Below, one piece after another: positions 16,801 to 60,422 of a stretch of DNA of 64,000 bases (positions are counted from its first letter, which is position 1; each line of letters begins with the position of its first letter). The position numbers were made by a program, and so were the translations under genes. Source of the DNA: a virus; the IMG/VR virus record IMGVR_UViG_3300049324_000053; one strand, 5' to 3'. The notes below the pieces were generated by a model that saw only the letters and a program-made list of their open reading frames with translations, had not been told where the DNA came from and did not search any database.

Positions 16801-19800
16801 GCGCTGATGGTGTTCAAGGACGAGATCAAAGACGGCAAAGACAGCACTGATCTGTTCAACGAGTCGATCAAGCAGGCCGGTATTTATGCGCTGGCCACCG
16901 GTCAGGACGCCGAGACCGCCGGCAAGCAGCTTGCCCAGTCCGCCAAGGACTTCGGCGGCGGATCCGCCATGGAGCCTCGTCTTGCCGACGCGAGCGTTAC
17001 CGCCGCTACCAATTATGGCGTCGATCATAAGCAGCTGGCGATTGCGAGTGCCGGCGCCGCCAACGTTGCCAGCATTGCCGGGGTCAACCCCGAAGAGCTG
17101 AACAACATTCTTGCCGCCGGCATGCAGGGATCCGGGATCAGCGGCACGCAGGCATCCACCCAGTTCGCCGGGCTGATCAGCCGCACCGAGAAGGGCCCGT
17201 TTCAGGCGTTACGCCAGAAGCTGAGTGTCTCCGACACCGGGGATGCCGCGCAGCAGATCGTGGCGATGGGCGCCGCGTTCGAGAAGTTGAACACCGCCCA
17301 GCAGCATGCCGCTCTTTCGTCGGTGGCGTCGGGGCGCAACATGAACTTCTACCAGGCGTTGATGCGCAACGCCGCGGGCCTGAACGACAATGTCACCAAG
17401 AGCCTGGAGGAGCAAGGCGCTGCTGCGGATCTTGCCGCCCAAAAGCAGCACACCATCGCCCAGGAGCTGCGTGACCTTGGCACGGCGTTCAAGACACTCG
17501 CCGAGAACATTGCCAAGTCCGGCATCCTCACTCCGCTCGGAGCGTTGCTTGCGGTCCTCGGCCCGATCGTCAACACGCTCAACTTCCTGTTCTCCGGCCT
17601 GCAGCATGTGACTGACCAGCTGCCGATCGTTGGCAAACACTTCTCCCAGGTGACCGGCACCATCATCGACGCTTGGCTGGCGATGAAGCTGTACGCCGCG
17701 GCGATGAGTGCGGGCGGGCTCGGGCCGGCGCTCGGTGCGCTCGGCCGGGTTGGACGTCATGGCGATCCCGCCACTGCGCCGACGCCTGGGACGACTTCGC
17801 TGCCGGTCCTGAAGCCGACTCCGGCTCCAACACCAACACCAACTCCCAAGCCGACACCAACCCCGGCCCCGGCACCGGCCCCAACGCCAACCCCGGCCCC
17901 GGCACCGGTACCGGCACCGAAGCCATCTCCGAAGCGGATCCGGACGCCAAGACCGACCCCAACCCCGGCGCCGGCACCGGTACCAACCCCGACACCAACC
18001 CCGGCGCCGGTCGTGGTGCCGCCTGCAGCGCCAACCCCGGCGCCGGTCGTGGTGCCGCCTGCGTCCAACGCCCGACGTGGGGGCCGGCTGAACCCGCTGC
18101 AGGGAGCGCCGACTCGTGCCGTACTGCGCGAGGCGGAGGTCAGCGAACGGGTTGGTGCGGCGTATGCCTCCGACGAGGAGATGATCGCCGCGCGTCGTGG
18201 TCCGCGGTTGTACCGGCGGCTCGGTGCACAGACTGCTGATGCCGCATCGCTGGCCGGTGCCAACCGTGAACTGGGCGCGACCCGCGGTTGGGCCGCAGGC
18301 CGGGAAGCGGACTTCCACAGTGAGGCTGGTGCCATCCGCGCGGGTGCCGCAGGTGGCAGCACTGCGCAGATGGAGCAGGCTGAAGCGGAGATCAGCCAGC
18401 GGCGTGCGGCGATGCAGCAGGAGATTGCCGCACGCATGGAGGCGTCGGAAGCTGCCGCCAGGGCCATTCTGTCCGGCGGTCAGCAGGGTGCTACCGCGCT
18501 CGCCGAGTCCGCCACGAGGATTGCTGCCGCCGAGCAGGCGCTGGCCGCGGAACTGGGCGCTGGCGGCGTCGAGATTGGTGCTGCGGCGGCCGCGGCTGGT
18601 GCGGAGATCCTCGCCGGCGGCGCTGCCGGTGGTGCTGCGGCGGCCGCGGCCGGCGCCGTCAAGGGTGCTGCCGGTGCTGCCACCGGCGCCGTCGGTGCCG
18701 TTGAAGGTGCTCTGGGTACGGCGGGCCGTGAAGTGGAAACCGTGCTGCCTGGTGCCGGTGGTGTGGCTCGCGGCGGTCTTCGCGGAGCGCTGGGGCGTGG
18801 CGCGGGCGGTCTTCGTGGGCTGCTGGGTCGCGGTGGGGCCGGCGGTGCGGCCGGAGCCGGCCGGTTCGCCCGGCTACGCGGCGCCACCGGGATGGGCGGC
18901 ATGGGCGCGATGCTCGGCATCGGCGCCGCCATCATGGTCGGCACGGAGCTGTGGAAAGAGAAAGACGCGGTCAACGATGCCCAGAACAAGGGCATGGACG
19001 CTCTCGGTGCCGGTATAGGCGACGATCCGGCGTCGTACGCCGCGAGCGCAACCGCCGCAGCCAAAGAGCTGCACAGGGCGGACAACAAGTTTCTGACGAA
19101 GCATTTCTTGACACCGGTCGTCAGTGGCATCAACCACATCCCCGGCATCGGTGGCGGCGGGTTGAGCGGCAAGGAGGAGGAGAAGGAACTCAACGAGCAG
19201 GCCGGAGACGCCAAGACGACGGCGAAGAACATCGAGGACGCTCGTTCGGCGGCGAACCTGGCGAGTGCCTCCAATGCCGCGTCGGTGAACATGCATGATC
19301 TCGCCGGGTCGTTCAAGGCGCTGACCGACCGCGGTGTGTCGGCACGTGATGCGATGAACACTATCGCGGAGGCGTTCGGCAACTTCGTCAACAACAAGGG
19401 GATCGGTGGCGACCCGCACTCGCAGCGGTTCCTTGCCCCCGGCCAGGCGGGTGTGCTCGCGGCGACCGCGGCTGGTGACATCGAGGCGCAGCTGCGTACG
19501 CAGCAGGAGGGGCACGGGGCGAACGATATTCTCAAGAACGACCTGAAGGGCAAGGATCTCGACAAGGCCCAGAACGACATCAACACCAGCCTGCAGAGTT
19601 ACATGAAAGACCATCAGGGTCAGGTCAACCCTGATGAGCTGAAGAGTGTCGCATTGCAGGCCGAACTGCAGGCACTGGGCATTACTCCTGACGCGTATGC
19701 AGCGATGTCGCCGGACAAGCAGCAGGCATATGTGCGGATAGCGAACGCCGGGGTGCAGCAGAGCACGCGATCGGTGACCGGCACCGATCTGCAGACCTCT

Positions 19801-22017
19801 GATGAGATCAAGCAGTTCCTGGATGTCACCCAGCAGGCACTGCCCGAGGTCGGGCATGAGGCAAGCCGGGACGCCTATCTGGACCCGACGAACGCCAACG
19901 GTGGCACCCTGTCCGGTGTTCTTGCCAAGGAAAAGCGTGCGGACGATGACATCGCTCTGGCGCAGAAAGCGCTCGACGACGATGCCAAGCGGCCCGAGGG
20001 TGACAAGGACAAGATGTCCCCCAAGGATCGGGCCGACGCCGAGACGAGAGTGAAAAAGGCAAGGGACGACCGCAAGGATTTGGACATCGAGGAGCAGCAG
20101 GCCCGCGAGCAGCATGAGGAGAACCTCGGCCAGGTCAAGGAGTCCCGGGTCAGCCAGTACGACAAGTCCGGCCGGGCCGACGTCGCGGTCGACACGGCGC
20201 AGACCGAGTACAACATGGCGACCGACGCCGACGACAAGGCGCAAAAAGAGGCCAAGCTCAACGCTGCCAAGCAGGCGCAGGCCGCGCAGAAGATGGCCGA
20301 CCAGAACGCTGCAACCCTGGCCGCCGCCACCCCCGGCGATCAGGTGTCCCAGACGCAGGCGCAGCTGAAAGCCGCGCAGCACACCCTGGAAACGCTCAAA
20401 GCGCAAGGCGCGAAGGGCGAGGATCTGTCGAACGCGGAGAAGGCGCTCAAGGAGGCGCAGCACGCCGCCGCATACGCCACCATCGAACAGGCCACCGCGC
20501 TGGCTTTGTCACTGACCGACATGCGTGACACCGCCGCTCGGGACGCCGCCGCGGTCGACGACGCGCGCAAGCATCTGGAGCAGGCGAAAAAGGAAGGTAA
20601 CAAGACCGACGAGTACAAGTACACCCAGCAGCTCAACGATGCGAAGGTCACCGGCGAGCAGCATGCTGATGCGGCGACATCGGCCAAGGAACTGGTCAAC
20701 ATTGATCCGCGGGCCACGGTCGCTCTTGCCCAGCAGCATCTCACGGATCTGCAACGCCAGCTGAACCGGTTCACCAGCGAAGGGCAGGGAAAGACCCAGG
20801 GCGCTGATCAGCTTCGCCAGCAGATCACCGCCGCGCAGCAGACCCTGGCCGAAAAGCAGGGCGCGATGCTGGTCTCGACTCTGGAAACGACGACCGGTCC
20901 GCAGGACACCGTCGGCCAGGCCAAGATCAACCTGGCCAAGGCGCAGAACGCGCTGACCGCCCTTATCCCGTCCAACGAGGGATACGGCGCCGCGCTGACC
21001 GGGGTGCGTAACGCGCAGCTGGATCTTGCCAAAGCGCAGGACGACATGGCCATCTCGCAGTTGCGCGCGTCGACCAGTTCGCAAGACACCGTCGGCCAGG
21101 CCAAGATCACGTTGGCAGAGGCGCAGCGTAAGTTGCGGGAAACGGACCCGAGCAACTCTGGGTACGGCGTCGCGGCGCAGGCGGTGACGGACGCGCAGCT
21201 GGCACTGGCCAAAGCGCAGGATGACATGGCGGTGTCCGCGGTCGTCGCCGGCACCATCACCGAGGGGGCGCTGGGGCAGGCGTCGATCGCGCTGACGCAG
21301 GCCAAAGCGAACTTCGATCGCGCCAACGTCAAGTCCGCCGACTTCGGGCAGCTGGTGGCGGCGTTGTACGCAAGCCAGCTGGCGTACGCCAATGCCCAGG
21401 ACGCTGCCGGGGCGACCGCCGCCGGGTTGCATCAGGATCTCACCGACCCGACGGTCGTGGCGCACAACGCGGTCGTCGCCGCGCAAAACAAACTGCAACG
21501 GCTCAAAGAGGCGATCGCCAAGCAGCGGGCGTACGACCAGGCACACGGGATCAAGTTCGACGAGGCCGCCGCTCAGGATGCGATCGACTCCGGGCAGACC
21601 GACGTGAACGCTGCGGCGAATGCCGAACAGAAAGCGACGTTCGACGCCCGACTGCAGGAAACTCAGCAGGCGTATTCGCTGCATCAGCTGTCCGGCGCCG
21701 CATACATTGCGGCTCTGAAGAAGCAGCGCGACGGCATTGTCGATGTCAACTATCAGACGCATCAGGAGATTTACCAGCTGAACAAGGCGATCCAGGACGC
21801 CAACGAGCAGGTGAGCGGCCAGTTCAACCTGACCGATATCAAACTTCCGACGGTGTATGAGGTGCGCCGCGCGGTCGCCTCCGGTAATCAGAACATCGAC
21901 GGTACCGTCAACAACAACAATGTCACCATCAACGGCGCTGATTTCACCAAGGTCGTTGCTTATATCAAGTCCATTCTCACTCCGGCGACCGGTCGTGTCG
22001 TCACCCCGCGGAGGTAG
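13822..22017 (+). CDS. Tape measure protein (2731 aa)
   Basis: Longest ORF; Ala-rich helical core, hydrophobic segments, coiled-coil C-terminus; follows the chaperone. Confidence 0.9.
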   Translation: MAGEDLFLHVGTDIRQVSEIFTTELDRMLNHRSEGGEFAPDLIPQLRRAMEEMSRYEAQYKKLLQLTERSGSLFQATAGVPAGSPQETVRQSAAKNLTTAGPELENLLAGFQRSIHDFYTLAKAAIPADAEGLQRALAETMRALFDQAATAAREAAHQTFGAAANAGSPAGGGDAAVTAMAEQIRLAGESLTRSVITSAESFARILHDATATGGTTASGAAPNTAPLETLNSTNLDLTAAIRLLVAEMGVLSAQMAANVATAKGANATASTGGHGGGHGGGHRGGGTTGGGGSGGDGGGRQYHNGHPDDPWDPEGADHDRRRAQKDWRRRTEISTQELYKRARDPHDPDFFFAGTEPGQGHVPPTESSPIIRRSGAGENWVYNAVAAVPDNPLAMSFARSPGQQRDTPQQRQSTAERRDAQQEQIARLEARRLAGELQTVAPGILHEPSTGQIYSARTGRLAGTAAIDPATGRHEGVAGPRDGTRSENRVDQSTLTRGVEELRKLAEGGAVSESRADVLRRGLPGGNLTPLSATTYHDPSTGQILSSATGRTVGTAHVDPHTQIVGATAEAAAGDRSLEQITADLKEFKAALAALERNAASAAKAATADTRDAARTDVQRRADAGELRRVGTTSAYHDPATNELLSAKSGRVLGTAQIDPKTQEVLGSQVNSANRTTEQVATDYAEFNAALNALHNNSQKAVENAAKTAQTAAAGQVLAKGAAGTGEYRQLGAGSVYHDPISGELHSSRTGRALGTATTDATTGKVSIAPITNASLTEEEINADQRERATALRFLARETEASAKTAKEVAIEARRQVEMEQVNLGNRLAYGGRKPLFTSDAAGGNVRDLRTGEGIATPSQQYEFDALHATERKKAEAQAKQRARAEQGEPGFGSAFVGGLTSSGFHAPGTGLVSLAGTAGVLARYSAAGAGISLLFKGVSQVKDAIMTTDAAFVDFNEAVRAAGAGTVDTSKAFSEMAAYGIDGVQALTIGAHALMVFKDEIKDGKDSTDLFNESIKQAGIYALATGQDAETAGKQLAQSAKDFGGGSAMEPRLADASVTAATNYGVDHKQLAIASAGAANVASIAGVNPEELNNILAAGMQGSGISGTQASTQFAGLISRTEKGPFQALRQKLSVSDTGDAAQQIVAMGAAFEKLNTAQQHAALSSVASGRNMNFYQALMRNAAGLNDNVTKSLEEQGAAADLAAQKQHTIAQELRDLGTAFKTLAENIAKSGILTPLGALLAVLGPIVNTLNFLFSGLQHVTDQLPIVGKHFSQVTGTIIDAWLAMKLYAAAMSAGGLGPALGALGRVGRHGDPATAPTPGTTSLPVLKPTPAPTPTPTPKPTPTPAPAPAPTPTPAPAPVPAPKPSPKRIRTPRPTPTPAPAPVPTPTPTPAPVVVPPAAPTPAPVVVPPASNARRGGRLNPLQGAPTRAVLREAEVSERVGAAYASDEEMIAARRGPRLYRRLGAQTADAASLAGANRELGATRGWAAGREADFHSEAGAIRAGAAGGSTAQMEQAEAEISQRRAAMQQEIAARMEASEAAARAILSGGQQGATALAESATRIAAAEQALAAELGAGGVEIGAAAAAAGAEILAGGAAGGAAAAAAGAVKGAAGAATGAVGAVEGALGTAGREVETVLPGAGGVARGGLRGALGRGAGGLRGLLGRGGAGGAAGAGRFARLRGATGMGGMGAMLGIGAAIMVGTELWKEKDAVNDAQNKGMDALGAGIGDDPASYAASATAAAKELHRADNKFLTKHFLTPVVSGINHIPGIGGGGLSGKEEEKELNEQAGDAKTTAKNIEDARSAANLASASNAASVNMHDLAGSFKALTDRGVSARDAMNTIAEAFGNFVNNKGIGGDPHSQRFLAPGQAGVLAATAAGDIEAQLRTQQEGHGANDILKNDLKGKDLDKAQNDINTSLQSYMKDHQGQVNPDELKSVALQAELQALGITPDAYAAMSPDKQQAYVRIANAGVQQSTRSVTGTDLQTSDEIKQFLDVTQQALPEVGHEASRDAYLDPTNANGGTLSGVLAKEKRADDDIALAQKALDDDAKRPEGDKDKMSPKDRADAETRVKKARDDRKDLDIEEQQAREQHEENLGQVKESRVSQYDKSGRADVAVDTAQTEYNMATDADDKAQKEAKLNAAKQAQAAQKMADQNAATLAAATPGDQVSQTQAQLKAAQHTLETLKAQGAKGEDLSNAEKALKEAQHAAAYATIEQATALALSLTDMRDTAARDAAAVDDARKHLEQAKKEGNKTDEYKYTQQLNDAKVTGEQHADAATSAKELVNIDPRATVALAQQHLTDLQRQLNRFTSEGQGKTQGADQLRQQITAAQQTLAEKQGAMLVSTLETTTGPQDTVGQAKINLAKAQNALTALIPSNEGYGAALTGVRNAQLDLAKAQDDMAISQLRASTSSQDTVGQAKITLAEAQRKLRETDPSNSGYGVAAQAVTDAQLALAKAQDDMAVSAVVAGTITEGALGQASIALTQAKANFDRANVKSADFGQLVAALYASQLAYANAQDAAGATAAGLHQDLTDPTVVAHNAVVAAQNKLQRLKEAIAKQRAYDQAHGIKFDEAAAQDAIDSGQTDVNAAANAEQKATFDARLQETQQAYSLHQLSGAAYIAALKKQRDGIVDVNYQTHQEIYQLNKAIQDANEQVSGQFNLTDIKLPTVYEVRRAVASGNQNIDGTVNNNNVTINGADFTKVVAYIKSILTPATGRVVTPRR

Positions 22018-39309: not shown

Positions 39310-39425
39310 GGCGCGCGGCGCTGTCTGGTCCGGGTGAGCCCGGCGGGAGTCCGCCACGCGGGTGTTCGGTCCGCGGGGTTCGGGGGGCGCGGTTGCCCCC
39401 CGTTCACGCGGCCGCAGCCTGCGCC
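39310..39425 (+). repeat. Structured non-coding element, copy A
   Basis: Similar to the reverse complement of 48714-48833. Confidence 0.8.
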
Positions 39426-39514
39426 ATGAACCGCTGGTGAGCGGACGCCGGCAAGAAGATGGGCCTCGGCTGCGCCGAGTCCTTGTGGGAGTCCGACGTC
39501 GTATCCTGCAGCTC

Positions 39515-40045
39515 ATGACGGACAACGCCGCCGACCTGATCGCACGTGCGCTCTGGATGGCCGGTCTGACCGCCGCGCAGCTGGCCAGCCGGCTGGACAT
39601 GCCGCAGTCGTTGCTCGACCAGCATCTTGACGGGCAGGTGCAGCCGACCCTGCGGCAGCTGGAGCACATCCTGGCCGTCGCCGGCCTGGAACCGGACATC
39701 GAGCTGCGCCCCCTTGGCACCCGCCAGGGCCAGAAGCTGTTGCAGGTGCTGGCGGTCACGGAGCTGCTGCCGCACGGGGAGCCGGGCCCGTTGCTGTTCC
39801 CGCCGTTTCGGACGTTCCTGCGCCGCGCTGATGACGAGGTTGCGTCCAGGCGAGACGATCAAGAGGTCGTCGACGTCTTCCGTGCTGCGCAGAGGGATTG
39901 GCCTGAGCACTTGAGGGACGACGCCCCGGTGCAGGCTTGTTCTGGATGCGGACGAAAGACCTGGACGTCTACCCGCTTCGGCCGGCCATGCGCGATGACG
40001 CAACCGGACGGAACACGTTGTCCCGGCGTGTTCGTGTCGGCGTAG
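39515..40045 (+). CDS. XRE-HTH (antitoxin-like) protein with Cys-rich C-terminal extension
   Basis: AGLTAAQLA....PQS......GQVQPTL..L..IL..AG; L.QVL...E.LP......L.FPP; TATCCT-N7-ATG. Confidence 0.6.
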   Translation: MTDNAADLIARALWMAGLTAAQLASRLDMPQSLLDQHLDGQVQPTLRQLEHILAVAGLEPDIELRPLGTRQGQKLLQVLAVTELLPHGEPGPLLFPPFRTFLRRADDEVASRRDDQEVVDVFRAAQRDWPEHLRDDAPVQACSGCGRKTWTSTRFGRPCAMTQPDGTRCPGVFVSA

Positions 40046-43193: not shown

Positions 43194-46184
43194 GTGGACA
43201 CATTCGACCCGGTGGCGTACCTCGCGGGCAAGGGCTGGCACGGACGCGCCACCGGCGGTCACGAGGTCGTCTACCCGTGCTTTTTCGACTGCGGCGAAGA
43301 TCAGAGCAGCCGCAAACGCAAGTTGTACCTGAACTCCACCACCGGCATGTACGACTGCAAGGTCTGCGGCACACACGGTGGGCCGTACCTGCTGGCCAAG
43401 CATTTCGGTGACATTCTCACCGACAACCAGCTGCACACCGACCAGCAGCTCGCCGGCGATCCGTTCGCCCGTCGCCGGCTGCTGGACGCTGCGACCACGG
43501 CCGCTGCGGACATGCTGCCCGCCAACCCGGCCATCCTCGATTACCTCACCGGCACCACCATGACCCCCTACGGACTCGGCCGCGGTCTCACCCCGGAAAC
43601 GGTCGTTGAACGCCGGTTGGGGTTCGCCGGTGGCAAACACTGGTCGCTCACCGCCGCCTTGGACCTGACCGGTGTCGACGCCGCCACCTTGACCAGCACC
43701 GGTCTGGCTCGTTCCGACGGGCGCGACACCTTCAGCACTCACATCACCATCCCGTACCTGGCCCGCGGGCACACCGAACAGATCCGCGGCCGCAACATCG
43801 GTGCGACCGGCAGCAAATACCTCTCGGCCGCCGGCGCCGGCGTTGCGCTCTACAACCGGGACAGTCTCGACGACGCCGACGAGGTGCTCATCACCGAAGG
43901 CGAGTTCGACGCGATGATCGCCCGGCAGTCGTTCGCTGCCAGCGGCGACGAGAAACTCGCCGCCTTGGCCGTCGTCGCCCTGCCCGGCACCAGCAGCTGG
44001 CCGACCGACCTGCCCGGCTACCTGACCGGGGTGCGGCGCATCTGGCTCGGCCTGGACGCCGACGAACCCGGCCGCAAAGCCACCGCCAAGCTCGCCGACA
44101 CGCTCGGCCGCCGCGCCCGCCCCCTCGCGCTGCCCGAAATGCATCAGGACTGGACCGACTGGATCGCCCGCGGCGGCGCCACCTGTGAACAGATCGCCGG
44201 CCTGTTCGCTGCCGCCAGCGGCCGTCGCGTTTTCAGCATGGCCGATGCTGGACGTAGCTGGCGCGCGCAGCGCACCCTGTCCGGCGGGTTGAAGACCGGG
44301 TACACCGGATTGGACTCCACCATTCTTCCTGGCCTGCTTCCCGGACAAGTTGCCGTGCTCTACTCGAAGACGGGTACAGGCAAACAGAACGATGTTGATG
44401 AGGTCGTCCCGACCCCAACCGGATGGCGCCGGTTCGGCGACTTGCAGCCCGGCGACCAGGTGTTCGGGCAAAACGGTAGCCCCACCACCGTCACCGGCGT
44501 CTGGCCCCAGATCGACCGGCGCGCCTGGCGGGTCACCTTCTCCGATCGAACAAGCCTCGTCGCCGGCCCCGACCACCTGTGGCAGGTCTCCTATCGTGGT
44601 GGACGGCGCCGGGAGTGGATCCCCTGCGTCATGTCCACCACCGAGATCCTTGCCGCCGGCCTGCACTACAGGCGCGAGTATCGCTGGATCATCCCGATGC
44701 CCGGCCCAGTCCAGTTCCCGAAGCAGCAACTACTTATCGCGCCCTACACGTTCGGCGCGCTGCTCGCGAACGGCTACCTGACCGGCACGGGCGCCGTGCT
44801 CACCACCCCTGATCCGCACGTCGTCGCCCGCTGCCGTAGCGAGCACATCCTGCACAAGCACAAGACGCCCGACGGTGCTTGCCGCCGGTACGGGGTGCTC
44901 GGCGTCCTGCCCGACCTGCGGCGTCTCGGCCTCACCGTCGGCAGCTACGACAAGTTCATCCCCGAGATGTACCTGACTGCCAGTGTTGAGCAGCGTATCG
45001 CCCTGCTGCAGGGGCTGATGGACGGCGACGGCAGTACTCGCGGCGCCGGACGTGCCTCGGTGCGGTATCACACCATGTCGCGGCGGCTGGCCGCCGATGT
45101 GCAGCGTCTGGTCTGGTCGCTCGGTGGCACGGCGATGGACAACTGGATGGACCGTGGCCCCAAGGGTGTCGAGGGAATGTTGTCGATCATGATGCCGTCC
45201 GAGATCGAGCCTTTCTACACCCCCCGCAAGGTGCGTGGTTGTCCGCCCAAGTACAGCGAGCCGCGCCGTGCCATCGTCAGCATCGAACCGGTCGAAGACC
45301 GTGACATGCAATGCATCAGCGTCGACGCTCCCGATGCGCTTTATCAGATCGGCGCCGCGCATATCGTCACCCACAACACGATCTTGCTCTGTAATATGTC
45401 CTACAATATGCGCCGGCATAATATTCTGTTCATCTCACTGGAGATGACCCGTGAGGAAATCTACGAACGACTGCGCCGCATCTATCTGTTCTGGAATCCC
45501 AACGCCACCGATGCAGAAGTCGATGCGGGTCTCGAACACATTTACATCTGCGACGAGAACCGCCTCGATGAGAATGCCTGGGCCGACGTCCTCGAAGAAT
45601 ATCAGACCGAGACCGGAACCACTCCTGACCTTGTCATGGTCGATTATCTCGGTTATTACGCTCGCGGTCACGCCGGCGCCAACCGGTACGAGCAAGTCTC
45701 CAACGCCATCATGAGCCTCAAAGCCGCCGCCAAAGGCAACGGCAACCCCGACAGCCGGTTCGCACTCATCACCCCCAGCCAGGTCAATCGTGGCGCCCGC
45801 GCCGGCGCTCCCGTCGAACTCGACGACGCCCGCGACTCCGGCGGTGTGGAGGAAACCGCCGACTTCGTGCTGAGCCTCTACCGTCCCGAGGACGCCCTGA
45901 CCGCGTCCGATCCTACCGCCGGACGTACCGGCGGCCGCCCCGCACCGCCCGTTGCAGCCGTCGCCACCGGCGCCCTACGTCTCGGTGTTCTCAAAAGCCG
46001 GCACGGTGGCGTCGGACGTGAATTCGGTTTGCAGATGGATCTGCTCACCTTGGCCATCGTCGAGATGAACACCGCCGCCGCACATCGTGCCGCCGATCAT
46101 AACAACTTGCACCGCCGTGGCCACGACTGGAATTACCTGCGGATGACCGAAACCCAACCCCGCCAACTGCGGATCGTCACCTAA
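43194..46184 (+). CDS. Fused primase (Zn finger plus TOPRIM) and DnaB-like helicase, intein-containing
   Basis: C..C/CKVC; TEGEFDAM; LDADEPG; TGTGK/T; SLEM; VDYL; SQVNR; LKSRHG. Confidence 0.92.
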   Translation: MDTFDPVAYLAGKGWHGRATGGHEVVYPCFFDCGEDQSSRKRKLYLNSTTGMYDCKVCGTHGGPYLLAKHFGDILTDNQLHTDQQLAGDPFARRRLLDAATTAAADMLPANPAILDYLTGTTMTPYGLGRGLTPETVVERRLGFAGGKHWSLTAALDLTGVDAATLTSTGLARSDGRDTFSTHITIPYLARGHTEQIRGRNIGATGSKYLSAAGAGVALYNRDSLDDADEVLITEGEFDAMIARQSFAASGDEKLAALAVVALPGTSSWPTDLPGYLTGVRRIWLGLDADEPGRKATAKLADTLGRRARPLALPEMHQDWTDWIARGGATCEQIAGLFAAASGRRVFSMADAGRSWRAQRTLSGGLKTGYTGLDSTILPGLLPGQVAVLYSKTGTGKQNDVDEVVPTPTGWRRFGDLQPGDQVFGQNGSPTTVTGVWPQIDRRAWRVTFSDRTSLVAGPDHLWQVSYRGGRRREWIPCVMSTTEILAAGLHYRREYRWIIPMPGPVQFPKQQLLIAPYTFGALLANGYLTGTGAVLTTPDPHVVARCRSEHILHKHKTPDGACRRYGVLGVLPDLRRLGLTVGSYDKFIPEMYLTASVEQRIALLQGLMDGDGSTRGAGRASVRYHTMSRRLAADVQRLVWSLGGTAMDNWMDRGPKGVEGMLSIMMPSEIEPFYTPRKVRGCPPKYSEPRRAIVSIEPVEDRDMQCISVDAPDALYQIGAAHIVTHNTILLCNMSYNMRRHNILFISLEMTREEIYERLRRIYLFWNPNATDAEVDAGLEHIYICDENRLDENAWADVLEEYQTETGTTPDLVMVDYLGYYARGHAGANRYEQVSNAIMSLKAAAKGNGNPDSRFALITPSQVNRGARAGAPVELDDARDSGGVEETADFVLSLYRPEDALTASDPTAGRTGGRPAPPVAAVATGALRLGVLKSRHGGVGREFGLQMDLLTLAIVEMNTAAAHRAADHNNLHRRGHDWNYLRMTETQPRQLRIVT
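44385..45377 (+). mobile_element. Class 3-type intein (331 aa) with LAGLIDADG homing endonuclease, inserted in Walker A
   Basis: GK/QNDV...TPTGW; DHLW; LLANG and GLMDGDG; MQCISV; VTHN/T. Confidence 0.88.
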
Positions 46185-51174: not shown

Positions 51175-51226
51175 AAACAAAAAAAGGCCCGGTGGCCGGG
51201 CTCTGTGCGAGCCGGCCACCGGGCCT
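51175..51226 (-). terminator. Rho-independent terminator
   Basis: AGGCCCGGTGGCCGG..CTC/GAG.CCGGCCACCGGGCCT stem with a T7 tail on the minus strand. Confidence 0.85.
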
Positions 51227-51252
51227 GGTTGGTGCGGGGCGATGCGGGTGGT

Positions 51253-52350
51253 TCAAGCCTTCACGGAACGGCCGAGCTGCGCCAGCCCGGTCATCGCCAG
51301 TTCCAGCGCCGCGCCGGCCCGATCCTGGGACACCTGCAGGATCTCGCTGTACATGTCGGCCTGATCCAGCAGCCGCTGATACTGCTCGGTGAGCGCCGCG
51401 TACAGCTTCGCCGGGATCCGCTCCCGGCCGCCGAGCTTGGCGATCTCGTCGAGCAGCCCCTGGATCTCCTTTTCGACCTCGTCCTCGAACGCTGTCATCA
51501 GCATCTGACGCTGTTCGGGCAGGTCCAGCAGCGGCAGCTGATGCATGCTGCAGCCGGAGATACGGGTCAGCACCGACTGCAGCGCGTCGATCACAGCCTG
51601 ATGGACGGTGTGCACGTAGTACACCCCGGACGCGGGCTTCACGCTGATCGCCTGCATGCCCGCACGCAGATAGTTGCGCACCACCGCACGTACCGCCTGG
51701 CCCTGCAGGAAGCTGCGCAGCTGCGTGTACCGGACGTCGAACGCGTCGAGTGCGGCTTGCACCTGCTCACGGTCGACGGCACCCATCGGCACGGGAGCGA
51801 CGGCGACGGGCTTGTTGTCCGGGCCGACCGCTTCGAGCAGTGAGTGCATCTCGGTGCGCACATGCTGACGGGTCAGGTCGCGGCGGCCGGTCATCGGGTC
51901 GTGCGCGCCGCGGAACAGCCGCAAGGTGGCGACGCGGGCGGTGGACACGGTCGCCGAGGAGCCGGTGTCGACCAGGTCGCGCATCAGGTACCGGATGATG
52001 ACCTCGTCGTCGGCGTGCACCTCGACGACACGCAGCCGGGCGTTGCCCGCGGGGTGCGGGTAGGCCGGCCGGCGGGCCAGTTCGCCGCTGGCCGCGCGAA
52101 AGCAGTCCATCGGCTGCGGCAGGCGCGGCAGGTACTTGGCGTCGAGGCCGGCGGCGGCGAACCACCCGGTCAGGTCGGCGTGCGACACGAGACCGCCGTG
52201 TTCGGGGATCGAGAACCAGGTGATCGTGCCGAGGATCATTTCGGGGTGCGCGCGCAGCATGTCGAGGCCGGAGCGGGTGTAGTCGGCCAGCTGTGCCTCG
52301 GGCTGTGCAGGGTTTGTGCTGCTGGACGGTCGTTCCTCGGTGACGGTCAT
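51253..52350 (-). CDS. DUF6744-like protein
   Basis: LG.ITWFSI...P...DCFRAA; SGVYYV; typical AAA/vWA neighbour. Confidence 0.6.
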   Translation of the reverse strand: MTVTEERPSSSTNPAQPEAQLADYTRSGLDMLRAHPEMILGTITWFSIPEHGGLVSHADLTGWFAAAGLDAKYLPRLPQPMDCFRAASGELARRPAYPHPAGNARLRVVEVHADDEVIIRYLMRDLVDTGSSATVSTARVATLRLFRGAHDPMTGRRDLTRQHVRTEMHSLLEAVGPDNKPVAVAPVPMGAVDREQVQAALDAFDVRYTQLRSFLQGQAVRAVVRNYLRAGMQAISVKPASGVYYVHTVHQAVIDALQSVLTRISGCSMHQLPLLDLPEQRQMLMTAFEDEVEKEIQGLLDEIAKLGGRERIPAKLYAALTEQYQRLLDQADMYSEILQVSQDRAGAALELAMTGLAQLGRSVKA

Positions 52351-52578
52351 GCGGTCCTCCTGTTGGCGCCTCGGGTGAAATCTACCTCTGAACGGTCGTT
52401 CATCGCCAGAGATACTGTGAATCGTTCGGGTGAAATATGCGGGCTACTTGCACAGAGCTTGCAGGGCAACTGCATGGCAGACGCAGGATTGCTGCGGAAC
52501 TTCAGTCGAGAAACTGCCGCCGAACGACACGAGTCACGCGGGGCGGCCGCAGATGCCATGGCGGCATCCTGTGTGTTG

Positions 52579-54114
52579 TCAGACGAGCCGGTACAGGTCC
52601 GCGACCTGGTCGACGTCGGTCAGATCGTCGATGCGCCGCGTCTGATCGGCCAGCGCCTTCAGCGTCGGCGTCACCGACGCCGCGATCGACACCGCGAACA
52701 GCCGGAACCCCAGACGCGCCTTGGCGTCGGCGAACCGGGCCGCGAACATCTCATCCACCCGGCACTCGCCATCGGTGAGCAGCACGATGTCCGCGGCCAC
52801 CCCAGGCTTGCCGTACGCCCCGTCGATCAACTCGACCGCCTGCGTCAACGGCGCAGCGAAATCGGTGCCACCGTCGAACGTGTGCCCCGCCCATTCCAGC
52901 AACCCGTCAAGATCGGCGTCGGTGCGGCCGGCGGGAAACTGCCAGCACCGCTGCTGACCAGCAGCACTGAAGTTGACCAGCGCAAGGTCACGGCGCCCGG
53001 TGCGTGCCGTGTCCGCAAGACCGAGCGCGACCGCCTTGGCCCACGCCTCCCGGCTCACCCCCGCATACGAGGTGTTCATCGAGTCGGATGTGTCCAGCAG
53101 CACGATCAGCGCGCCCTGCCCGGCTCGTTCCACCCCGGCATACGCTCGCGTCAGCAGCTGCCCCTCCCCGAGACGGGCGAGGAAGTCGAGGCGGGTGTGC
53201 CGGTTGGTCAGTGCGACCAGTTCACTGCCGAGCACATCCGGCAGCCGGTCAGATAGGTCCACCCCGATGACCTCGTCACGGCCGGTGACCACTTTGCGGG
53301 CCCGTTCGGTGTTCGCCCGTACCCGCACCCGGCCGATCAGATCCGCGAACCGCGCGAGACGATGCGCGGACAGTTTGTCCAGCAGCGCCACCCGCTCGCC
53401 GACATCCACCGTCCCACCCGCACCGGGAGCCATCCCCCACGCCGTCAGCAGCGCCGCTTCCTGCTTCAGCTGGGCGTCCGCTGCTTTCGCTGCCACGTTC
53501 ACCGCGGCACGCATCCGGCTGGCCGTGTCCGCCGGCAGCATGTCGCTGGCGTCCTGCGCGGCCTGCGCCGCGCCCAACGCCGCCGCAAGCGCACCATCAT
53601 CGTGCGCCGGGTCGCCGTCCGCGGTGTTCTTGTCTTCGTGATGCGCGGCGAGAGCATCGGACAGCGCCTGCGCCGCCCGCTCGGCGTCCTGCTGTGCGGC
53701 CTGCGCGCGGCCGGCGGCCGCGGACAGCTGCTCGACGAGCACCGGCGCCAGCGTCAAGGCACCGATCGCGGCGCTGTACTCGTCGTGGCGGGTCCGTTCC
53801 CGCAACGTCTCGACAGCGTCGCTGGTGGCCAGCTGCCCGATCGCTGCCCGGTTCACGCTGTACCCGTCGGCCATTGCCGACGGGTCCGCCAGCGTCGGGG
53901 AACCCTGATACAGCAGGGCCAGTAGGTCTGTCACCAGCTCCGGTGCATGATCGTGCGTTTCGGACAGTTCGTCGGTCAACGCCGATAATGCCGGCAACCC
54001 GGCCTGCAGCTCGGTCAACATCCGTGCATCGAACCCGGTCGTGACGACCGCCTGCGTGCTGATGCGTGCGGTGCGCCGCGTCAGGAACGCCCGTGCCCGG
54101 TCGATGAGGTTCAT
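52579..54114 (-). CDS. vWA (ViaA/CoxE-like) protein
   Basis: MIDAS LDTSDSM, GGTDF, LTDGE. Confidence 0.88.
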   Translation of the reverse strand: MNLIDRARAFLTRRTARISTQAVVTTGFDARMLTELQAGLPALSALTDELSETHDHAPELVTDLLALLYQGSPTLADPSAMADGYSVNRAAIGQLATSDAVETLRERTRHDEYSAAIGALTLAPVLVEQLSAAAGRAQAAQQDAERAAQALSDALAAHHEDKNTADGDPAHDDGALAAALGAAQAAQDASDMLPADTASRMRAAVNVAAKAADAQLKQEAALLTAWGMAPGAGGTVDVGERVALLDKLSAHRLARFADLIGRVRVRANTERARKVVTGRDEVIGVDLSDRLPDVLGSELVALTNRHTRLDFLARLGEGQLLTRAYAGVERAGQGALIVLLDTSDSMNTSYAGVSREAWAKAVALGLADTARTGRRDLALVNFSAAGQQRCWQFPAGRTDADLDGLLEWAGHTFDGGTDFAAPLTQAVELIDGAYGKPGVAADIVLLTDGECRVDEMFAARFADAKARLGFRLFAVSIAASVTPTLKALADQTRRIDDLTDVDQVADLYRLV

Positions 54115-55307
54115 GACGCCACCATCGTTTCGGCGGTCTTACGGGCAGCCTGCTCGTTCATGCCCAGCGAAATGACCAGCACGTGGGTCTGCACCACGGT
54201 CAGCAGTTCCCGCGCCGCGGCGTACCGGCTGCCCGCTCGGGTCGCCGTGTCCACCTTGGCGAGGGCCTCGGTGAACTTGCGCAGCTGCGCCTGCGCGTCA
54301 CCGGCCCACGCGGAGCGCTTCTCCCGTGACAGACCGTCCTGCTCGGACAGTTGCGCATACAGGGTGTCGAGCGCATCGGACACCTCGGCGACCACCCGCA
54401 GCTGCGGGTCACCATGCGCGTTGACCAGTTCCCGTACTGCAGGCAGATGCGCCGGGTCGTCCCACAGCACATGTATCAGCACCGACAGATCCGCGGCGGT
54501 GACCGTGTCACGACCGGACAGGAACGCTTGCGCCTGCAGCACCCGCACACACATCGCCCACCGGCGGTCCGACGGAACGATCCCCTTGCGGGCCAGCCCG
54601 GTGCGCAGCGTCCACAACGTCGAGATGATCGCATCAGGGATACGCACCGCAGGTACCAGCGCGTCGGCGGCGGTACGCAGCTCGTCCAGTGTCACCGTCG
54701 TCGGGGTGGTCGTGGCGGTCGCTGCGGCGCGGGTCAGCAGCCGCGCGAACGAGCCCGGCTCCTTGACGTAGTCGACCATCAGCCGGATCGTGAACCGGTC
54801 CCAGATCGCGGCCAGCTCCGTTTCCAGCAGCTCGTTACTCGCCGAGATCATGCTCAGCAGCGGCAGGTCACGCCACCCATCGCCGGCGTTGAACCTACGT
54901 TCCTCCATCACCGTCAGGTACGGGTTCACCGACGCCGGGCCCGCTTTGCCGATCTCGTCGACGAACGCGACATCCGCGTCGACGAGCGTGTCGCCGGTGC
55001 GGCGCACCCATTCACCGGTGGCCTCGAACCGGGCGATGTCGATCGGCCCGAAGCTTTCCTCACGGGGCAGCTGACGGTCCATCAGCACATGCCAGTAGCG
55101 GGCACCGACGATCCGGCCGGTCAGCGCCCGCACCATCGCACTCTTGCCGGTACCGGGCGGGCCCAGCACGAAGGCGTGAGACCGTGCCAGCAGCGCCACC
55201 ATCAGCATCTGCAGCGCCTCGTCACGTTCCACGAACTCTGTGGCCAGCTCACCGATGATCGCGGTCAGTTTCGTTGCCGTTGTCGTCGTCGTCGTAGTGG
55301 TGGTCAT
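54111..55307 (-). CDS. MoxR/RavA-like AAA+ ATPase
   Basis: GPPGTGKS; FVDEIGKA; ASNE; DRF; SDRRW. Confidence 0.88.
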   Translation of the reverse strand: MTTTTTTTTTATKLTAIIGELATEFVERDEALQMLMVALLARSHAFVLGPPGTGKSAMVRALTGRIVGARYWHVLMDRQLPREESFGPIDIARFEATGEWVRRTGDTLVDADVAFVDEIGKAGPASVNPYLTVMEERRFNAGDGWRDLPLLSMISASNELLETELAAIWDRFTIRLMVDYVKEPGSFARLLTRAAATATTTPTTVTLDELRTAADALVPAVRIPDAIISTLWTLRTGLARKGIVPSDRRWAMCVRVLQAQAFLSGRDTVTAADLSVLIHVLWDDPAHLPAVRELVNAHGDPQLRVVAEVSDALDTLYAQLSEQDGLSREKRSAWAGDAQAQLRKFTEALAKVDTATRAGSRYAAARELLTVVQTHVLVISLGMNEQAARKTAETMVAS

Positions 55308-56278
55308 GAGGTCGCCCTTTCGTTGCGTAGCGCGGTGGCACGACGCCGGCCGGCGGCTGTCAGCACCCGGCCCTGCTTCGTGAAAGCGATCAGTTCGGCG
55401 TCCCCGAGCAGCGTTTCGGTGTCCGACAACCCACCCGGCTCACGCAGCATCTCCGCGAGCGCCGCCTTACCAAGACCTTCCGGGGTCGAACGCAACGCGA
55501 TCAGATAACGCTGTGCAAGATCGGTCAGCCCGTCCTCGCTGAGACCCATCCAGCTCAGAACCGACGTCAGGTCGTAACCGTTCTCCTCATCCCAGTTCGC
55601 GCCCTCATTGCCGAGCGCATCGTTGACCAGATTCGTGAAGATCGTGCCGATGCGGCGCGGGTTACGCACCGCCGCACGCGCCACCCGCTCGCACGTCGCC
55701 CGGTTCGGCTGCGGCAGCCCCGTCCCGGCGAACTTCGCCGTGCCGGTCAGAATGGCGATCAGCACCGCCTCGGCCTCGGTGTACGCCTCCAGCACCGGCC
55801 GCAACGGAAACCGGTCCAGGATCGGCACCGGCAGTCGTCCCACGTCCGTCGTCGCCGCGACGACCGTGATGTTCGGCATTTCCTCCGCGCCGCACGGCCC
55901 CATCAGCACACCGTCCTGCAGCAGATGAAGCAGCCACTCGGCGTTCTGCTTGCCACCGTTCACGAGACGATGCACCTCGTCGATGAACAGAATCGACCCG
56001 TCTTCCATGTCACCGATCAGATAGCGCGCCTCGTTGAGGCCGAGCTTGCCGGACACCACCTCGCACGGCACGCCCATCTCGTCGGCGATCAGCAGCGCCA
56101 GCGTCGTCTTCCCGAGCCCCGCATGCCCGCTGGCCAGCAGCGTGTGATCGAGACGCCGTCCGCGGGTCTTCGCCGCGTTGATCGCCGCCCGTAGCTGTGC
56201 TTTCGCTTTCGGCTGCCCGACGTACTCGTCCCAGCTGTTCACGTACTGACCGGTTCCGGCCATCGTCGCTGTGCTCAT
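55304..56278 (-). CDS. ruvB: RuvB-like AAA+ ATPase
   Basis: W.EYVGQ..K; LDHTLL..G..GLGKTTLA..IA.EM; ILFIDEVHRL; ATT..G.L..P..DRF; GR..T..G. Confidence 0.8.
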   Translation of the reverse strand: MSTATMAGTGQYVNSWDEYVGQPKAKAQLRAAINAAKTRGRRLDHTLLASGHAGLGKTTLALLIADEMGVPCEVVSGKLGLNEARYLIGDMEDGSILFIDEVHRLVNGGKQNAEWLLHLLQDGVLMGPCGAEEMPNITVVAATTDVGRLPVPILDRFPLRPVLEAYTEAEAVLIAILTGTAKFAGTGLPQPNRATCERVARAAVRNPRRIGTIFTNLVNDALGNEGANWDEENGYDLTSVLSWMGLSEDGLTDLAQRYLIALRSTPEGLGKAALAEMLREPGGLSDTETLLGDAELIAFTKQGRVLTAAGRRRATALRNERATS

Positions 56279-57222
56279 GCCGCTGCCTCAATTCGGGGGA
56301 TGTCGACCAGCTGGTCGATCGTGCAATCGGTGGGTGCGATGTCGTCGCGCAATGTGAGAAACACCGGATGCCGTGGCGCGCCGGACGGTTCGAGCAACGC
56401 CGAAACGCTGATCTCCGCGACCTGCAACTGGCCACCGTCCAGCCCGGCACGTACCCGGGTCAGTTCTGTGTGCGACAACCCGGACCCGACCCGGCCGAAC
56501 CCGACCGCACCGGCCGGACCGACCAGCGCCAGCTGCAGCGCACCGAACGTCGCCGCCCGGCTGCCGTGACCCGCCGTCGCGCCGACGATGACCGCCGACA
56601 CCCGATGCTCGGGCTTGAGCTTCACCCACGCCCCGGACCGTCCCGGCACCCACGACGCACCCGGCGCTTTGGCGACGAGGCCTTCAAGACCACGCCGGGT
56701 CACGAACCGCCATGCCGCCTGCCCGTCGCCGAACTCACGCACCGGCCGCAGCCGGGTGCCCCGCAGCCGCAGCTCACGCAGCGTCTGCGACCGGACCCGT
56801 TGCGGTGTGCGGCGCAGATCCGTACCGTCCGCGCGAAGCACATCGAACACGCAGTACGCCGCAGGCCACCGCCGTGCCGCCGCCGCGATCGCCGCCGTGC
56901 TGGCCTGCGCGTCACGCCGGTGTGTTGCCGCGAAATCAGGTTTGCCGCCGGTGAACACGACCACCTCACCGTCGAGCGTCCACATCCCGACCGGGAACTT
57001 GCGCGCCAGCGACGCGGTGATCTCCGGGAAACGGGCGGTCGCGTCGATCCCACGCCGGCCGGTCAACGTGACCCGGCCATGCTCGATGTGCGCGACCATC
57101 CGCACCCCGTCATATTTGATCGAGAACAGGTAGCCGCGAGCGGCGAGCACGTCGATCGCCTCGGGAATGTTCGGCGCGATCCGCCGATGGCCCTCGGCGA
57201 GCATCACCAGCGGCGTACTCAC
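56275..57222 (-). CDS. ATP-dependent DNA ligase (LigD/LigC-like ligase domain only)
   Basis: KYDGVR, LDGEVV, FDVL, EGLVAK, WVKLK. Confidence 0.88.
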   Translation of the reverse strand: MSTPLVMLAEGHRRIAPNIPEAIDVLAARGYLFSIKYDGVRMVAHIEHGRVTLTGRRGIDATARFPEITASLARKFPVGMWTLDGEVVVFTGGKPDFAATHRRDAQASTAAIAAAARRWPAAYCVFDVLRADGTDLRRTPQRVRSQTLRELRLRGTRLRPVREFGDGQAAWRFVTRRGLEGLVAKAPGASWVPGRSGAWVKLKPEHRVSAVIVGATAGHGSRAATFGALQLALVGPAGAVGFGRVGSGLSHTELTRVRAGLDGGQLQVAEISVSALLEPSGAPRHPVFLTLRDDIAPTDCTIDQLVDIPRIEAAA

Positions 57223-58058
57223 GCCGACACCGGCGTCTTACGAGCGCGCGGCTTACGCGCCGCCCGCGGCTTGGGTGCCGCCGCAACCTGCTCGGCGGCG
57301 GCACGTTCGGTCACCGCCGCGGTCAGCCGGTCCAGCAGGCTGGTCACCGTCGCGTCCGGCCCGCTCGTGTCCGGCGCGGCACCGGCAGCCACCGGCGTCA
57401 CTGCGGCGAGCGCCGCATCCAGGGCCGCCTTGCGGGCGTCGATGTAGTCGGCCTCGGCGAACGGGATGCATGCGGCATCGGCGAACGCCTCGACCGCCGC
57501 GAGCAGCGGCGACGCCGCAGGCAGGCTCGGCGCGGCCGGAGCGGCACGCATCTGCTCGGGGCGGGCCAGCGCTGTCAGTGTCAGCACGCCGCGCGCCACT
57601 CCGAGCCGGTAGAGGCTGACGTTCGAGCGCGGTGCCCATTGGGCGAGGAACGCCAGGTCGGGGCGGCGGGCGACCAGCTGTGCGATCAGCGCGTACGCGG
57701 TGTCGGTGTTGCTGCGGGCCTTGAGGTGGTAGACGTTGCCCGCCGCGAGCAGGGTCACGTCGTCGGCGCGGTGCACCGACAGCGCGATCTGCTCTTTGAG
57801 TTCTGCCGCGACCGGCGTCACCGCGTCCGGCGGGACCAGCACGAGCGTGCCGTCCGGCAGTTCGCGGGCCGAGAAGAAACCATGCCGGTCGGCGGCCTTG
57901 CAGGTGGGGCAGGCGACGGACTGACGGACCCGGATCGGGTCGTGCCCGTCGGTGCACACCGTGTGCAGGGATTCGGGGGTGCTGACGGCGGCCTCGACGT
58001 CGATCAGCGTACTGACGACCTCGGCCAGCTTGAGGGTGACCTTGACGCGGACCGCCAT
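57219..58058 (-). CDS. ku: Ku-like DNA end-binding protein
   Basis: Ku-like N-terminus (RVRQSVACPTC...ELPDGTLVLV), Y.L, EQMRA, Y.D, basic tail; coupled to the ligase. Confidence 0.72.
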   Translation of the reverse strand: MAVRVKVTLKLAEVVSTLIDVEAAVSTPESLHTVCTDGHDPIRVRQSVACPTCKAADRHGFFSARELPDGTLVLVPPDAVTPVAAELKEQIALSVHRADDVTLLAAGNVYHLKARSNTDTAYALIAQLVARRPDLAFLAQWAPRSNVSLYRLGVARGVLTLTALARPEQMRAAPAAPSLPAASPLLAAVEAFADAACIPFAEADYIDARKAALDAALAAVTPVAAGAAPDTSGPDATVTSLLDRLTAAVTERAAAEQVAAAPKPRAARKPRARKTPVSA

Positions 58059-58223
58059 GATGACGGCTCCCTTCCTGATGGGCGTTCAGATTAGCGCCTC
58101 TGATGTCAGAGTACGCGAGCATGAGTCGTGACGCAGCGTCAACCGCTACGCCATCCGAGTGAAACTGGGGCTGTCAACGAGCGTTGAGAAGCCCATCCGT
58201 GCCGATGAGCCGGTGAACGACCG

Positions 58224-59794: not shown

Positions 59795-60021
59795 GACGCG
59801 GGCTCGATACGCACGATGTGTCCCGCGCGGGTGACCACTTGCACGTCGACGTCGCGCCACTGCGAGTTGGTGATCTCGTAGTTCACTGCCGCGTCGGGCT
59901 CGGTGAGTGCTGCCGTGTTGTCGGTGAACACCACCCGGTACTGCGGGTTGCCGTCGCGGGTGTTCTTCAGGCGCACCAGCGACGCGATGCGCGCCACCGT
60001 GCGAAGCTCGGATGTGTTCAT
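59791..60021 (-). CDS. Small OB-like protein
   Basis: RLKNT.DGNPQY.V.F; ATGA-coupled. Confidence 0.55.
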   Translation of the reverse strand: MNTSELRTVARIASLVRLKNTRDGNPQYRVVFTDNTAALTEPDAAVNYEITNSQWRDVDVQVVTRAGHIVRIEPAS

Positions 60022-60422
60022 GCGCTGATCGCCTCGTTCTCGTCGGCTGCCGGGGTCGGCAGCACCGTATCGGGATGCAGTTGCAGGTACGCGTTGACGA
60101 CCTCGTTGGGCAGCGGGCCGCGATCGGACACCCTCATGCCCGCACCGAGCGCCCAGGCGCGCATCTTGGCCCACTGGCCGTTGTCATTCGACCGGCGCGG
60201 CGGCTTACGATCCGCCGTCGTCGAACGCAGGATGCGCGTCGGTTCCTTCGGCTCCGGCAGCGGCCGGGCCAGCGGAATGTATGCCGCCAGCGCGCTGAAC
60301 ATCTCGCCGGCTTCCTCCTCGGTCAGGTCGATCTCGAACCCGTGACCGGGACGGCCGATCTGATAGCGCGCGGCGGGGGACCTACCGGACAGGTCGCTGA
60401 TGATGACCAGACGCTCAGCCAT
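60018..60422 (-). CDS. lsr2: Lsr2-family nucleoid-associated protein
   Basis: SDLSG...FEIDLT....M..AL..YI..AR; MRAWA...G..VSDRGPLP..VV.AY. Confidence 0.85.
   Translation of the reverse strand: MAERLVIISDLSGRSPAARYQIGRPGHGFEIDLTEEEAGEMFSALAAYIPLARPLPEPKEPTRILRSTTADRKPPRRSNDNGQWAKMRAWALGAGMRVSDRGPLPNEVVNAYLQLHPDTVLPTPAADENEAISA

Follow-up and report, generated by a model that had tools for sequence, protein, structure and literature searches.

We analysed a 64,000-nucleotide stretch of viral DNA (IMG/VR record IMGVR_UViG_3300049324_000053; this whole stretch is referred to below as the window), which is part of a large, high-GC tailed phage whose parent contig is listed as 145,127 bp. Our attention was focused on a minus-strand run of genes encoding, in this order, a Ku-like protein, an ATP-dependent DNA ligase, a RuvB-like ATPase, a MoxR-class ATPase, a protein with a von Willebrand factor A (vWA) domain and, finally, a member of the DUF6744 family (Table 1). 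Elsewhere, the window contains tail genes, as well as genes for an endolysin, an HNH nuclease, a repressor-like protein, an exonuclease, a Sak4-like annealase and a primase-helicase. An earlier note, made from the nucleotide sequence alone, had named the six products of the cluster, and profile matches assign them to the same families. Its account of the layout also proved accurate: the junctions of the first five genes are four 4-nt overlaps (GTGA, ATGA, ATGA, ATGA), a 228-bp gap separates the vWA gene from the DUF6744 gene, and an intrinsic terminator follows the latter. A search of Rfam gave no match in the cluster region.

The note had, moreover, observed that copies of a palindrome precede both the Ku gene and the DUF6744 gene, and both copies are present (Table 1); the one in the vWA-DUF6744 gap is followed after 4 nt by a TANNNT-like hexamer and after 39 nt by the start codon of DUF6744. 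The palindrome, TSAACGNNCGTTSA, occurs seven times in the window (sites starting at 22619, 37355, 52389, 58174, 61141, 61250 and 62925), in comparison with 0.71 copies expected by chance, and probably serves a phage repressor as operator. The window has a repressor-like gene at 39362-40045.

Table 1. Genes and predicted signals of the cluster (positions are those of the window)
Feature	Position	Strand	Basis
Ku homologue, divergent, 279 aa, Lys/Arg-rich C-terminal tail	57219..58058	-	TIGR02772, phrog_4873, orthologue profile
ATP-dependent DNA ligase, ligase-only (LigD LIG-domain type), 315 aa	56275..57222	-	PF01068, TIGR02779, motifs
RuvB-like AAA+ ATPase, phage-restricted clade, shortened presensor-1 hairpin, 324 aa	55304..56278	-	full-length RuvB match
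MoxR-class AAA+ ATPase (bpMoxR / RavA-like ATPase module, no LARA domain), 398 aa	54111..55307	-	PF20030, AAA_lid_8, AAA_5
vWA protein (ViaA-like), complete MIDAS motif, 511 aa	52579..54114	-	PF00092, PF13519, ViaA
DUF6744 protein, 365 aa	51253..52350	-	PF20529
Intrinsic terminator, GC hairpin and T7 run, closes the cluster	~51187..51236	-	sequence and terminator scan
14-bp palindrome TCAACGAGCGTTGA, candidate operator upstream of the Ku gene	58174..58187		repeat count in window
14-bp palindrome TGAACGGTCGTTCA in the vWA-DUF6744 gap	52389..52402		repeat count in window

The conservation of this gene set was examined in a survey anchored on the RuvB-like protein, with loci drawn from IMG/VR, public metagenomes and species genomes and scored by tblastn and by hidden Markov models (HMMs) built from the matches. 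We compared 66 non-redundant loci of the clade to which the RuvB-like protein belongs (described below) with 115 control loci from the same scans that carry canonical RuvB. Among the 27 clade loci with complete flanks (at least 6 kb upstream and at least 3 kb downstream), DUF6744 was found in 24, the ligase in 21, MoxR and vWA in 20 each and Ku in 18, and all of these partner genes were co-directional with the RuvB-like gene. None of the five was present in any of the 115 control loci, and no other gene of the window was conserved in more than six of the first 25 clade loci. The linkage, for which the earlier note had proposed a gene-neighbourhood survey, is thus conserved well beyond chance.

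The neighbourhood has been retained while its internal order has been repeatedly reshuffled. We recognized at least ten complete gene orders (24 order patterns if cut contigs are counted); the commonest was Ku-ligase-MoxR-vWA-DUF6744-gap-RuvB, and the order in the window was seen only once among the surveyed loci. The position of the RuvB-like gene varies: it separates MoxR from vWA in at least six loci and Ku from the ligase in three, directly precedes DUF6744 in four (with a 4-nt overlap in L003 and at a distance of approximately 0.4-0.7 kb in the others), and in L001 is found 1.6 kb upstream of Ku. The neighbourhood is maintained over a range of 34-58% in RuvB-like identity and of 0.47-0.71 in GC content. 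This persistence, despite the reshuffling and the exchange of flanking genes, points to selection for clustering, and not only shared descent.

The single families are known; what appears to be undescribed in the literature and collections that we searched is their combination, the existence of a RuvB clade without RuvA and the central position of DUF6744. At the DNA level the window had no match among cultured phages, and its similarity to plasmids was limited to a 67-bp fragment of an AAA ATPase gene. In tblastn searches of 50,697 phage records with the Ku, RuvB-like and DUF6744 proteins we found no close relative, except for DUF6744 and MoxR in the phage MTATph1 (see below); for Ku there was no match at E ≤ 1e-3, and it therefore has no close relative in the cultured phages of that set. 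Scans of viral and metagenome contigs with single proteins gave no hits.

Some of the loci carry information on the lifestyle of their phages. In L031, a contig of an Actinomycetota metagenome-assembled genome (739,543 bp), the cluster is located at the end of the long contig (positions 1-14986), and the IMG/VR record behind L009, which also carries the cluster, is classed as a "provirus". This suggests that some of the cluster-bearing phages are temperate and infect Actinomycetota. In the IMG/VR record behind L015 (G013, 136,218 bp) the RuvB-like gene is split across both contig ends, with approximately 40 codons present at both, which identifies this genome, classed as "linear", as a circularly permuted assembly.

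The DUF6744 gene, which the earlier note had treated as an appendix to the operon, emerged from the survey as the most constant partner and, judging from gene neighbourhoods, is the hub of the cluster. It follows vWA almost everywhere, often with a start/stop overlap (4 nt in L027). In the complete genome G001 it accompanies the RuvB-like gene in the absence of MoxR, and in the Moorella phage MTATph1 (L026, OR602862) it forms a DUF6744-MoxR-vWA group with no RuvB-like protein, Ku or ATP-dependent ligase. Another member of the family is gp25 of the haloarchaeal virus HVTV-1 (E 3e-15), which encodes an AAA ATPase and a vWA protein 15 kb away. In both MTATph1 (L026 6375-13135) and HVTV-1 (L192, KC117377, 5957-10966), the DUF6744 gene is situated a few small open reading frames (ORFs) downstream of the gene for the large subunit of ribonucleotide reductase.

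The RuvB-like protein is a genuine relative of RuvB. It matched RuvB_N with 97 bits and NF000868 over its full length (1e-37, positions 14-312 against 22-322 of 330), with a score (129.8) below the equivalog cut-off of 282, and the family profile aligned with solved RuvB over the full length at approximately 1e-56 (7e-56). The three-domain architecture of RuvB is kept, together with Walker A, Walker B, sensor 1, the arginine finger and sensor 2. A second protein of this type, P0002, is 86% identical to that of the window, and the contig on which it is listed is likewise 145,127 bp long. In a tree of 153 sequences the clade split from canonical RuvB as a monophyletic group with support of 0.98, the two groups having been assigned by HMM score before the tree was built.

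The members of this clade share several departures from canonical RuvB. The stretch making up the presensor-1 beta-hairpin is eight residues shorter in all 15 aligned members, so the full hairpin characteristic of RuvB is missing, and three residues are inserted after Walker B. The spacer between Walker B and sensor 1 is 37 residues long in 42 of 61 clade members and 42 residues long in 107 of 115 canonical proteins, and sensor 1 reads ATT-D/E in all 61 clade members and ATT-K/R in 103 of the 115. RuvB is regarded as dependent on RuvA. An HMM built from the RuvA genes adjoining canonical RuvB detected RuvA beside RuvB in 77 of the 115 control loci, and it found none in 73 loci of the clade and none among the ORFs of the 64-kb window. 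The lone RuvB remarked upon in the earlier note is therefore a property of a whole lineage and not an accident of one genome. The shortened hairpin, together with helix alpha3, corresponds to the site at which domain III of RuvA docks and activates RuvB (PMC9477746). The clade is essentially phage-borne, since a search of 185,579 species genomes returned 80 loci, of which only three could be assigned to it.

As a single sequence, the Ku homologue is weakly recognizable: it had no Pfam match, and the full-length alignment with TIGR02772 scored 42.9 bits (3.9e-11), in comparison with a cut-off of 150. The profile of 13 orthologues matched solved bacterial Ku with 1.2e-33 (positions 10-265 against 31-290), which covers the beta-barrel core over the full length of the sequence, and nine of the 13 orthologues matched PF02735. 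The ligase was assigned more directly (PF01068, 95 bits against a cut-off of 26.2), being closest to the ligase domain of LigD (TIGR02779, 2e-52). Its motifs I, III, IIIa, IV and V, including the motif of the adenylated lysine, are intact (K36-Y-D-G, D84-G-E, F126-D, E180-G-x3-K185 and K201-x-K203, conserved in at least 85% of 36 orthologues), and its C-terminal oligonucleotide-binding (OB) region gave a weak match (19 bits). Full-length LigD models matched in the ligase segment only, and profile scans revealed no polymerase/primase, phosphoesterase or nuclease domain in the 315-aa protein. Both proteins of the predicted end-joining pair thus retain the hallmarks of their families.

The MoxR and vWA genes form a pair of a known type. 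MoxR matched bpMoxR (PF20030) with 144 bits and other MoxR-core/AAA_lid_8 models with 56 and 67 bits, all above the cut-offs, and its Walker A (G49-x2-G-x-G-K55) and Walker B (D117-E118) motifs are conserved. The closest named model was RavA (5.8e-52), the similarity being confined to the ATPase module: NF010054 was matched over positions 6-296 of 498 with 177 bits (cut-off 681), and the LARA domain is lacking. The vWA protein matched PF00092 with 28.7 bits (cut-off 23.8) and ViaA with 2e-11. Its metal ion-dependent adhesion site (MIDAS) is complete, with D341-x-S343-x-S345, T417 and D448 invariant in 14 orthologues, and its N-terminal 330 aa, which belong to no named family, are shared with other phage vWA proteins.

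The assignment of the last gene to DUF6744 is clear (PF20529, 80 bits against a gathering cut-off of 27), and a profile search collected 3958 representatives of the family at E ≤ 1e-3. An AlphaFold (AF2) model obtained from an alignment of 106 sequences had a predicted local distance difference test (pLDDT) value of 94 and a predicted template modelling (pTM) score of 0.86; a fold made from the single sequence (pLDDT 37) was unusable. In the former model, a five-stranded meander interrupts an alpha/beta part, and the C-terminal end is formed by a three-helix bundle. Foldseek found nothing in the PDB at E ≤ 1e-3, and in wider fold searches residues 275-365 gave only generic three-helix-bundle matches, the N-terminal two thirds were barely covered, and residues 78-214 had weak helix-grip-like matches (Z 5-7). 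No relative of VMAP, iSTAND, FtsH or beta-propeller proteins was present among the matches listed in the structural searches. The matches in BFVD were all uncharacterised viral proteins and those in the ESM Atlas were DUF6744 clusters, a PDB sequence search with the family profile yielded coiled-coil noise only, and a word-based homologue search returned the protein itself only. The alignments of the family are too divergent for pattern scans, and in the literature searched no paper mentions it. Homology to RuvA was considered as well and could be ruled out (hhalign against an alignment of 12 RuvA sequences, probability 0.6%).

On this basis, we consider, with a probability of roughly one half, that the six genes constitute a phage cluster for DNA-end joining and ATP-driven remodelling, with DUF6744 as the shared adaptor. 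Ku would bind double-strand ends and the ligase would seal them; lacking polymerase and nuclease domains, the latter would join compatible ends without editing. The RuvB-like protein, as a hexameric motor with a shortened RuvA-docking hairpin, would translocate on duplex DNA, and DUF6744 might recruit or activate it in place of RuvA. DUF6744 might also be a client or third subunit of MoxR-vWA, a predicted combination of remodelling ATPase and MIDAS adaptor that could remodel a protein of the set via the MIDAS site. The set as a whole would join the ends of the phage genome, or breaks within it, and would then move or dismantle the protein-DNA complexes left behind. Through the two palindromes, a single repressor would control both transcription units, with early timing. 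The contacts, the substrates and the timing are those that we infer from the identity and arrangement of the genes.

Several observations weigh against this interpretation. Most of the loci come from related, high-GC uncultured phages, and part of the co-occurrence therefore reflects shared descent. Ku and the ligase are both absent from the genomes G003, G004 and G005 and from MTATph1, and MoxR is absent from G001, so the parts of the cluster may be independent units that only tend to co-locate. The DUF6744 family has no conserved acidic or histidine cluster and no catalytic-looking motif, its fold has no informative solved relative despite the pLDDT of 94, and no longer, fused DUF6744 proteins were found (in itself weak evidence). 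The role of adaptor is therefore deduced from gene context.

The near-complete genomes G003, G004 and G005 also bear on the suggestion of the earlier note that the ATPases may move or unload Ku. They have no Ku gene, and keep the RuvB-like and DUF6744 genes, with MoxR-vWA in some form; MTATph1 likewise has its part of the ATPase/DUF6744 core without Ku. Unloading of Ku therefore cannot be the general role of the ATPases, and the suggestion is not supported in the form in which it was made. Thirteen other related IMG/VR genomes encode exactly one Ku each, and in the Ku-less phages the protein of the host could substitute. A more specific version of the proposal, in which DUF6744 replaces RuvA as loader and activator of the phage-specific motor and, together with MoxR-vWA, clears or extracts proteins bound at the ends, such as Ku rings that have become trapped once the DNA is sealed, seems to us improbable. 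Rings of Ku that stay on DNA after sealing have to be removed actively, and in eukaryotes trapped rings are removed by the AAA+ ATPase p97/VCP; to our knowledge, the removal of bacterial-type Ku from repaired DNA has not been established. If this version were true, AAA+-driven removal of Ku would for the first time have a counterpart in prokaryotes or viruses.

The best-surviving alternative, which we regard as possible though clearly less probable than a joint machine, is that three independent units have come to lie in the DNA-metabolism region of one phage lineage: Ku and the ligase for circularisation or repair, the RuvB-like protein with DUF6744 for branch migration in recombination-dependent replication, and MoxR-vWA as a general assembly chaperone, e.g. 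of the virion. The units do occur separately in complete genomes, MoxR is more than 20 kb away from the RuvB-like and DUF6744 genes in G003 and G004, the cluster of the window is itself split into two transcription units, and a role as chaperones of virion assembly has been proposed or reported for MoxR-vWA pairs of other viruses (PMC7824862). Such independence is difficult to reconcile with the insertion of the RuvB-like gene between MoxR and vWA, or between Ku and the ligase, in several loci, with the near-constant position of DUF6744 after vWA, or with the conservation of the six genes, and not of their flanks, across the ranges of identity and GC content given above.

A further observation relevant to this choice was connected with proteins of approximately 180-200 aa containing a WGR domain. 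In 12 loci of the clade (L002:9407-10000, L013:8816-9376, L017:8648-9205, L119:6878-7414 and eight others), such a protein is encoded close to the RuvB-like gene, in most cases immediately upstream; no gene of this kind is present in the 115 canonical-RuvB loci or in the window. In PARP enzymes the WGR domain senses DNA breaks. These genes suggest a DNA-break theme of the neighbourhood that is independent of Ku.

It is rather unlikely, in our opinion, that the cluster serves to counter the end joining of the host, with the phage Ku and its editing-free ligase outcompeting the error-prone host Ku-LigD at phage ends and the ATPases stripping off host end-binding proteins. In its favour, non-homologous end joining (NHEJ) of Mycobacterium smegmatis has been reported to restrict a mycobacteriophage, the cos sites being repaired imperfectly (PMC12848934); the phage ligase is devoid of the polymerase and nuclease domains, and operator-like palindromes, which are typical of early control regions, precede the cluster. 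Yet the evidence gathered here is confined to phage genes and does not extend to the host or its proteins, the genes for Ku and the ligase are missing from several phages that have the ATPase core, and direct terminal repeats were found in relatives both with Ku (G007) and without it (G004 and G005), no link between the presence of Ku and the type of terminal repeat being evident in the few classified genomes.

Least probable of all, and hardly to be expected, is a conflict system (for superinfection exclusion or defence) composed of MoxR, vWA and DUF6744, perhaps with the RuvB-like protein, and merely neighboured by Ku and the ligase: MoxR does match a Pfam family defined on the MoxR-vWA ternary conflict systems, and the layout parallels these systems, in which MoxR-vWA is joined by a third protein and, in one class, by a second AAA+ ATPase (Kaur et al. 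2020, PMC7159879), but no component carries an effector domain such as a nuclease, protease or TIR domain (Pfam searches found none on the vWA protein of the window or its 13 orthologues, and DUF6744 as the only family in the third protein), the only match to known defence families was a marginal one of MoxR to mad8 (E 7.5e-4, 17 bits), the association with DNA-end genes (Ku, ligase, WGR) is tight, and the clade is almost absent from the species genomes searched.

Three other genes of the window deserve mention. The ORF at 43194-46184 (plus strand) encodes a 996-aa fusion of a primase and a DnaB-like helicase, the middle third of which (approximately residues 390-735) matches PHROGs labelled as terminase large subunit and helicase loader, and may represent an intein or an additional P-loop module. 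The 2731-aa ORF at 13822-22017 (plus strand), in the region of the tail genes, is presumably a very long tape measure protein. The 134-aa ORF at 60018-60422 (minus strand) groups by BLAST with a gene of L003 annotated as Lsr2 and with ORFs in three other related loci, and is probably a phage Lsr2-like nucleoid protein.

The cluster described in this study ties a MoxR-vWA remodeller to DNA end joining and offers testable candidates for the removal of bacterial-type Ku. It also brings to light a whole phage clade of RuvB in which the hairpin that docks RuvA is shortened and the uncharacterised DUF6744 is the constant neighbour instead. This provides a direct route to the function of a family with thousands of members for which we found no literature. 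On the practical side, the compact pair of Ku and a ligase-only enzyme from an actinophage could serve end joining in Actinobacteria.

To conclude, the individual parts of the cluster can be compared with several known systems. The phage clade has the same full-length, three-domain homology and the same ATPase motifs as the RuvB motor of RuvAB, but differs in the hairpin, in the residues added after Walker B and in the ATT-D/E form of sensor 1; furthermore, RuvA never adjoins it, and its place is taken by DUF6744, which is not homologous to RuvA. As in RavA-ViaA, a vWA gene with a complete MIDAS comes directly after the gene for a MoxR AAA+ protein, although the pair in the window is devoid of the LARA domain, lies in a phage DNA-metabolism context and has a conserved third gene, DUF6744. 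The genetic association of an AAA+ remodeller with Ku recalls the removal of Ku rings by eukaryotic p97/VCP, from which it differs in the ATPase families concerned, in the lack of ubiquitin and in the existence of the phage ATPase core without Ku. With the MoxR-vWA ternary conflict systems (PMC7159879) the cluster shares the common plan of a MoxR-vWA core and an obligatory third protein, as well as the second AAA+ ATPase of one class; here, however, the third protein is DUF6744 and not VMAP, iSTAND, FtsH or a beta-propeller, effector domains are missing, and the genes are borne by phages rather than by multicellular bacteria. The closest parallel to the first two genes is the bacterial two-component NHEJ (Ku and LigD), in which Ku is likewise partnered by an ATP-dependent ligase of the LigD LIG-domain type and possesses a basic C-terminal tail that is also found on the phage Ku; Ku genes are, moreover, known from the mycobacteriophages Corndog and Omega. 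In contrast to LigD, the phage ligase has neither a polymerase nor a phosphoesterase domain; the phage here supplies a ligase of its own; and, unlike in these systems, the two genes share their cluster with those for two AAA+ ATPases, a vWA protein and DUF6744.

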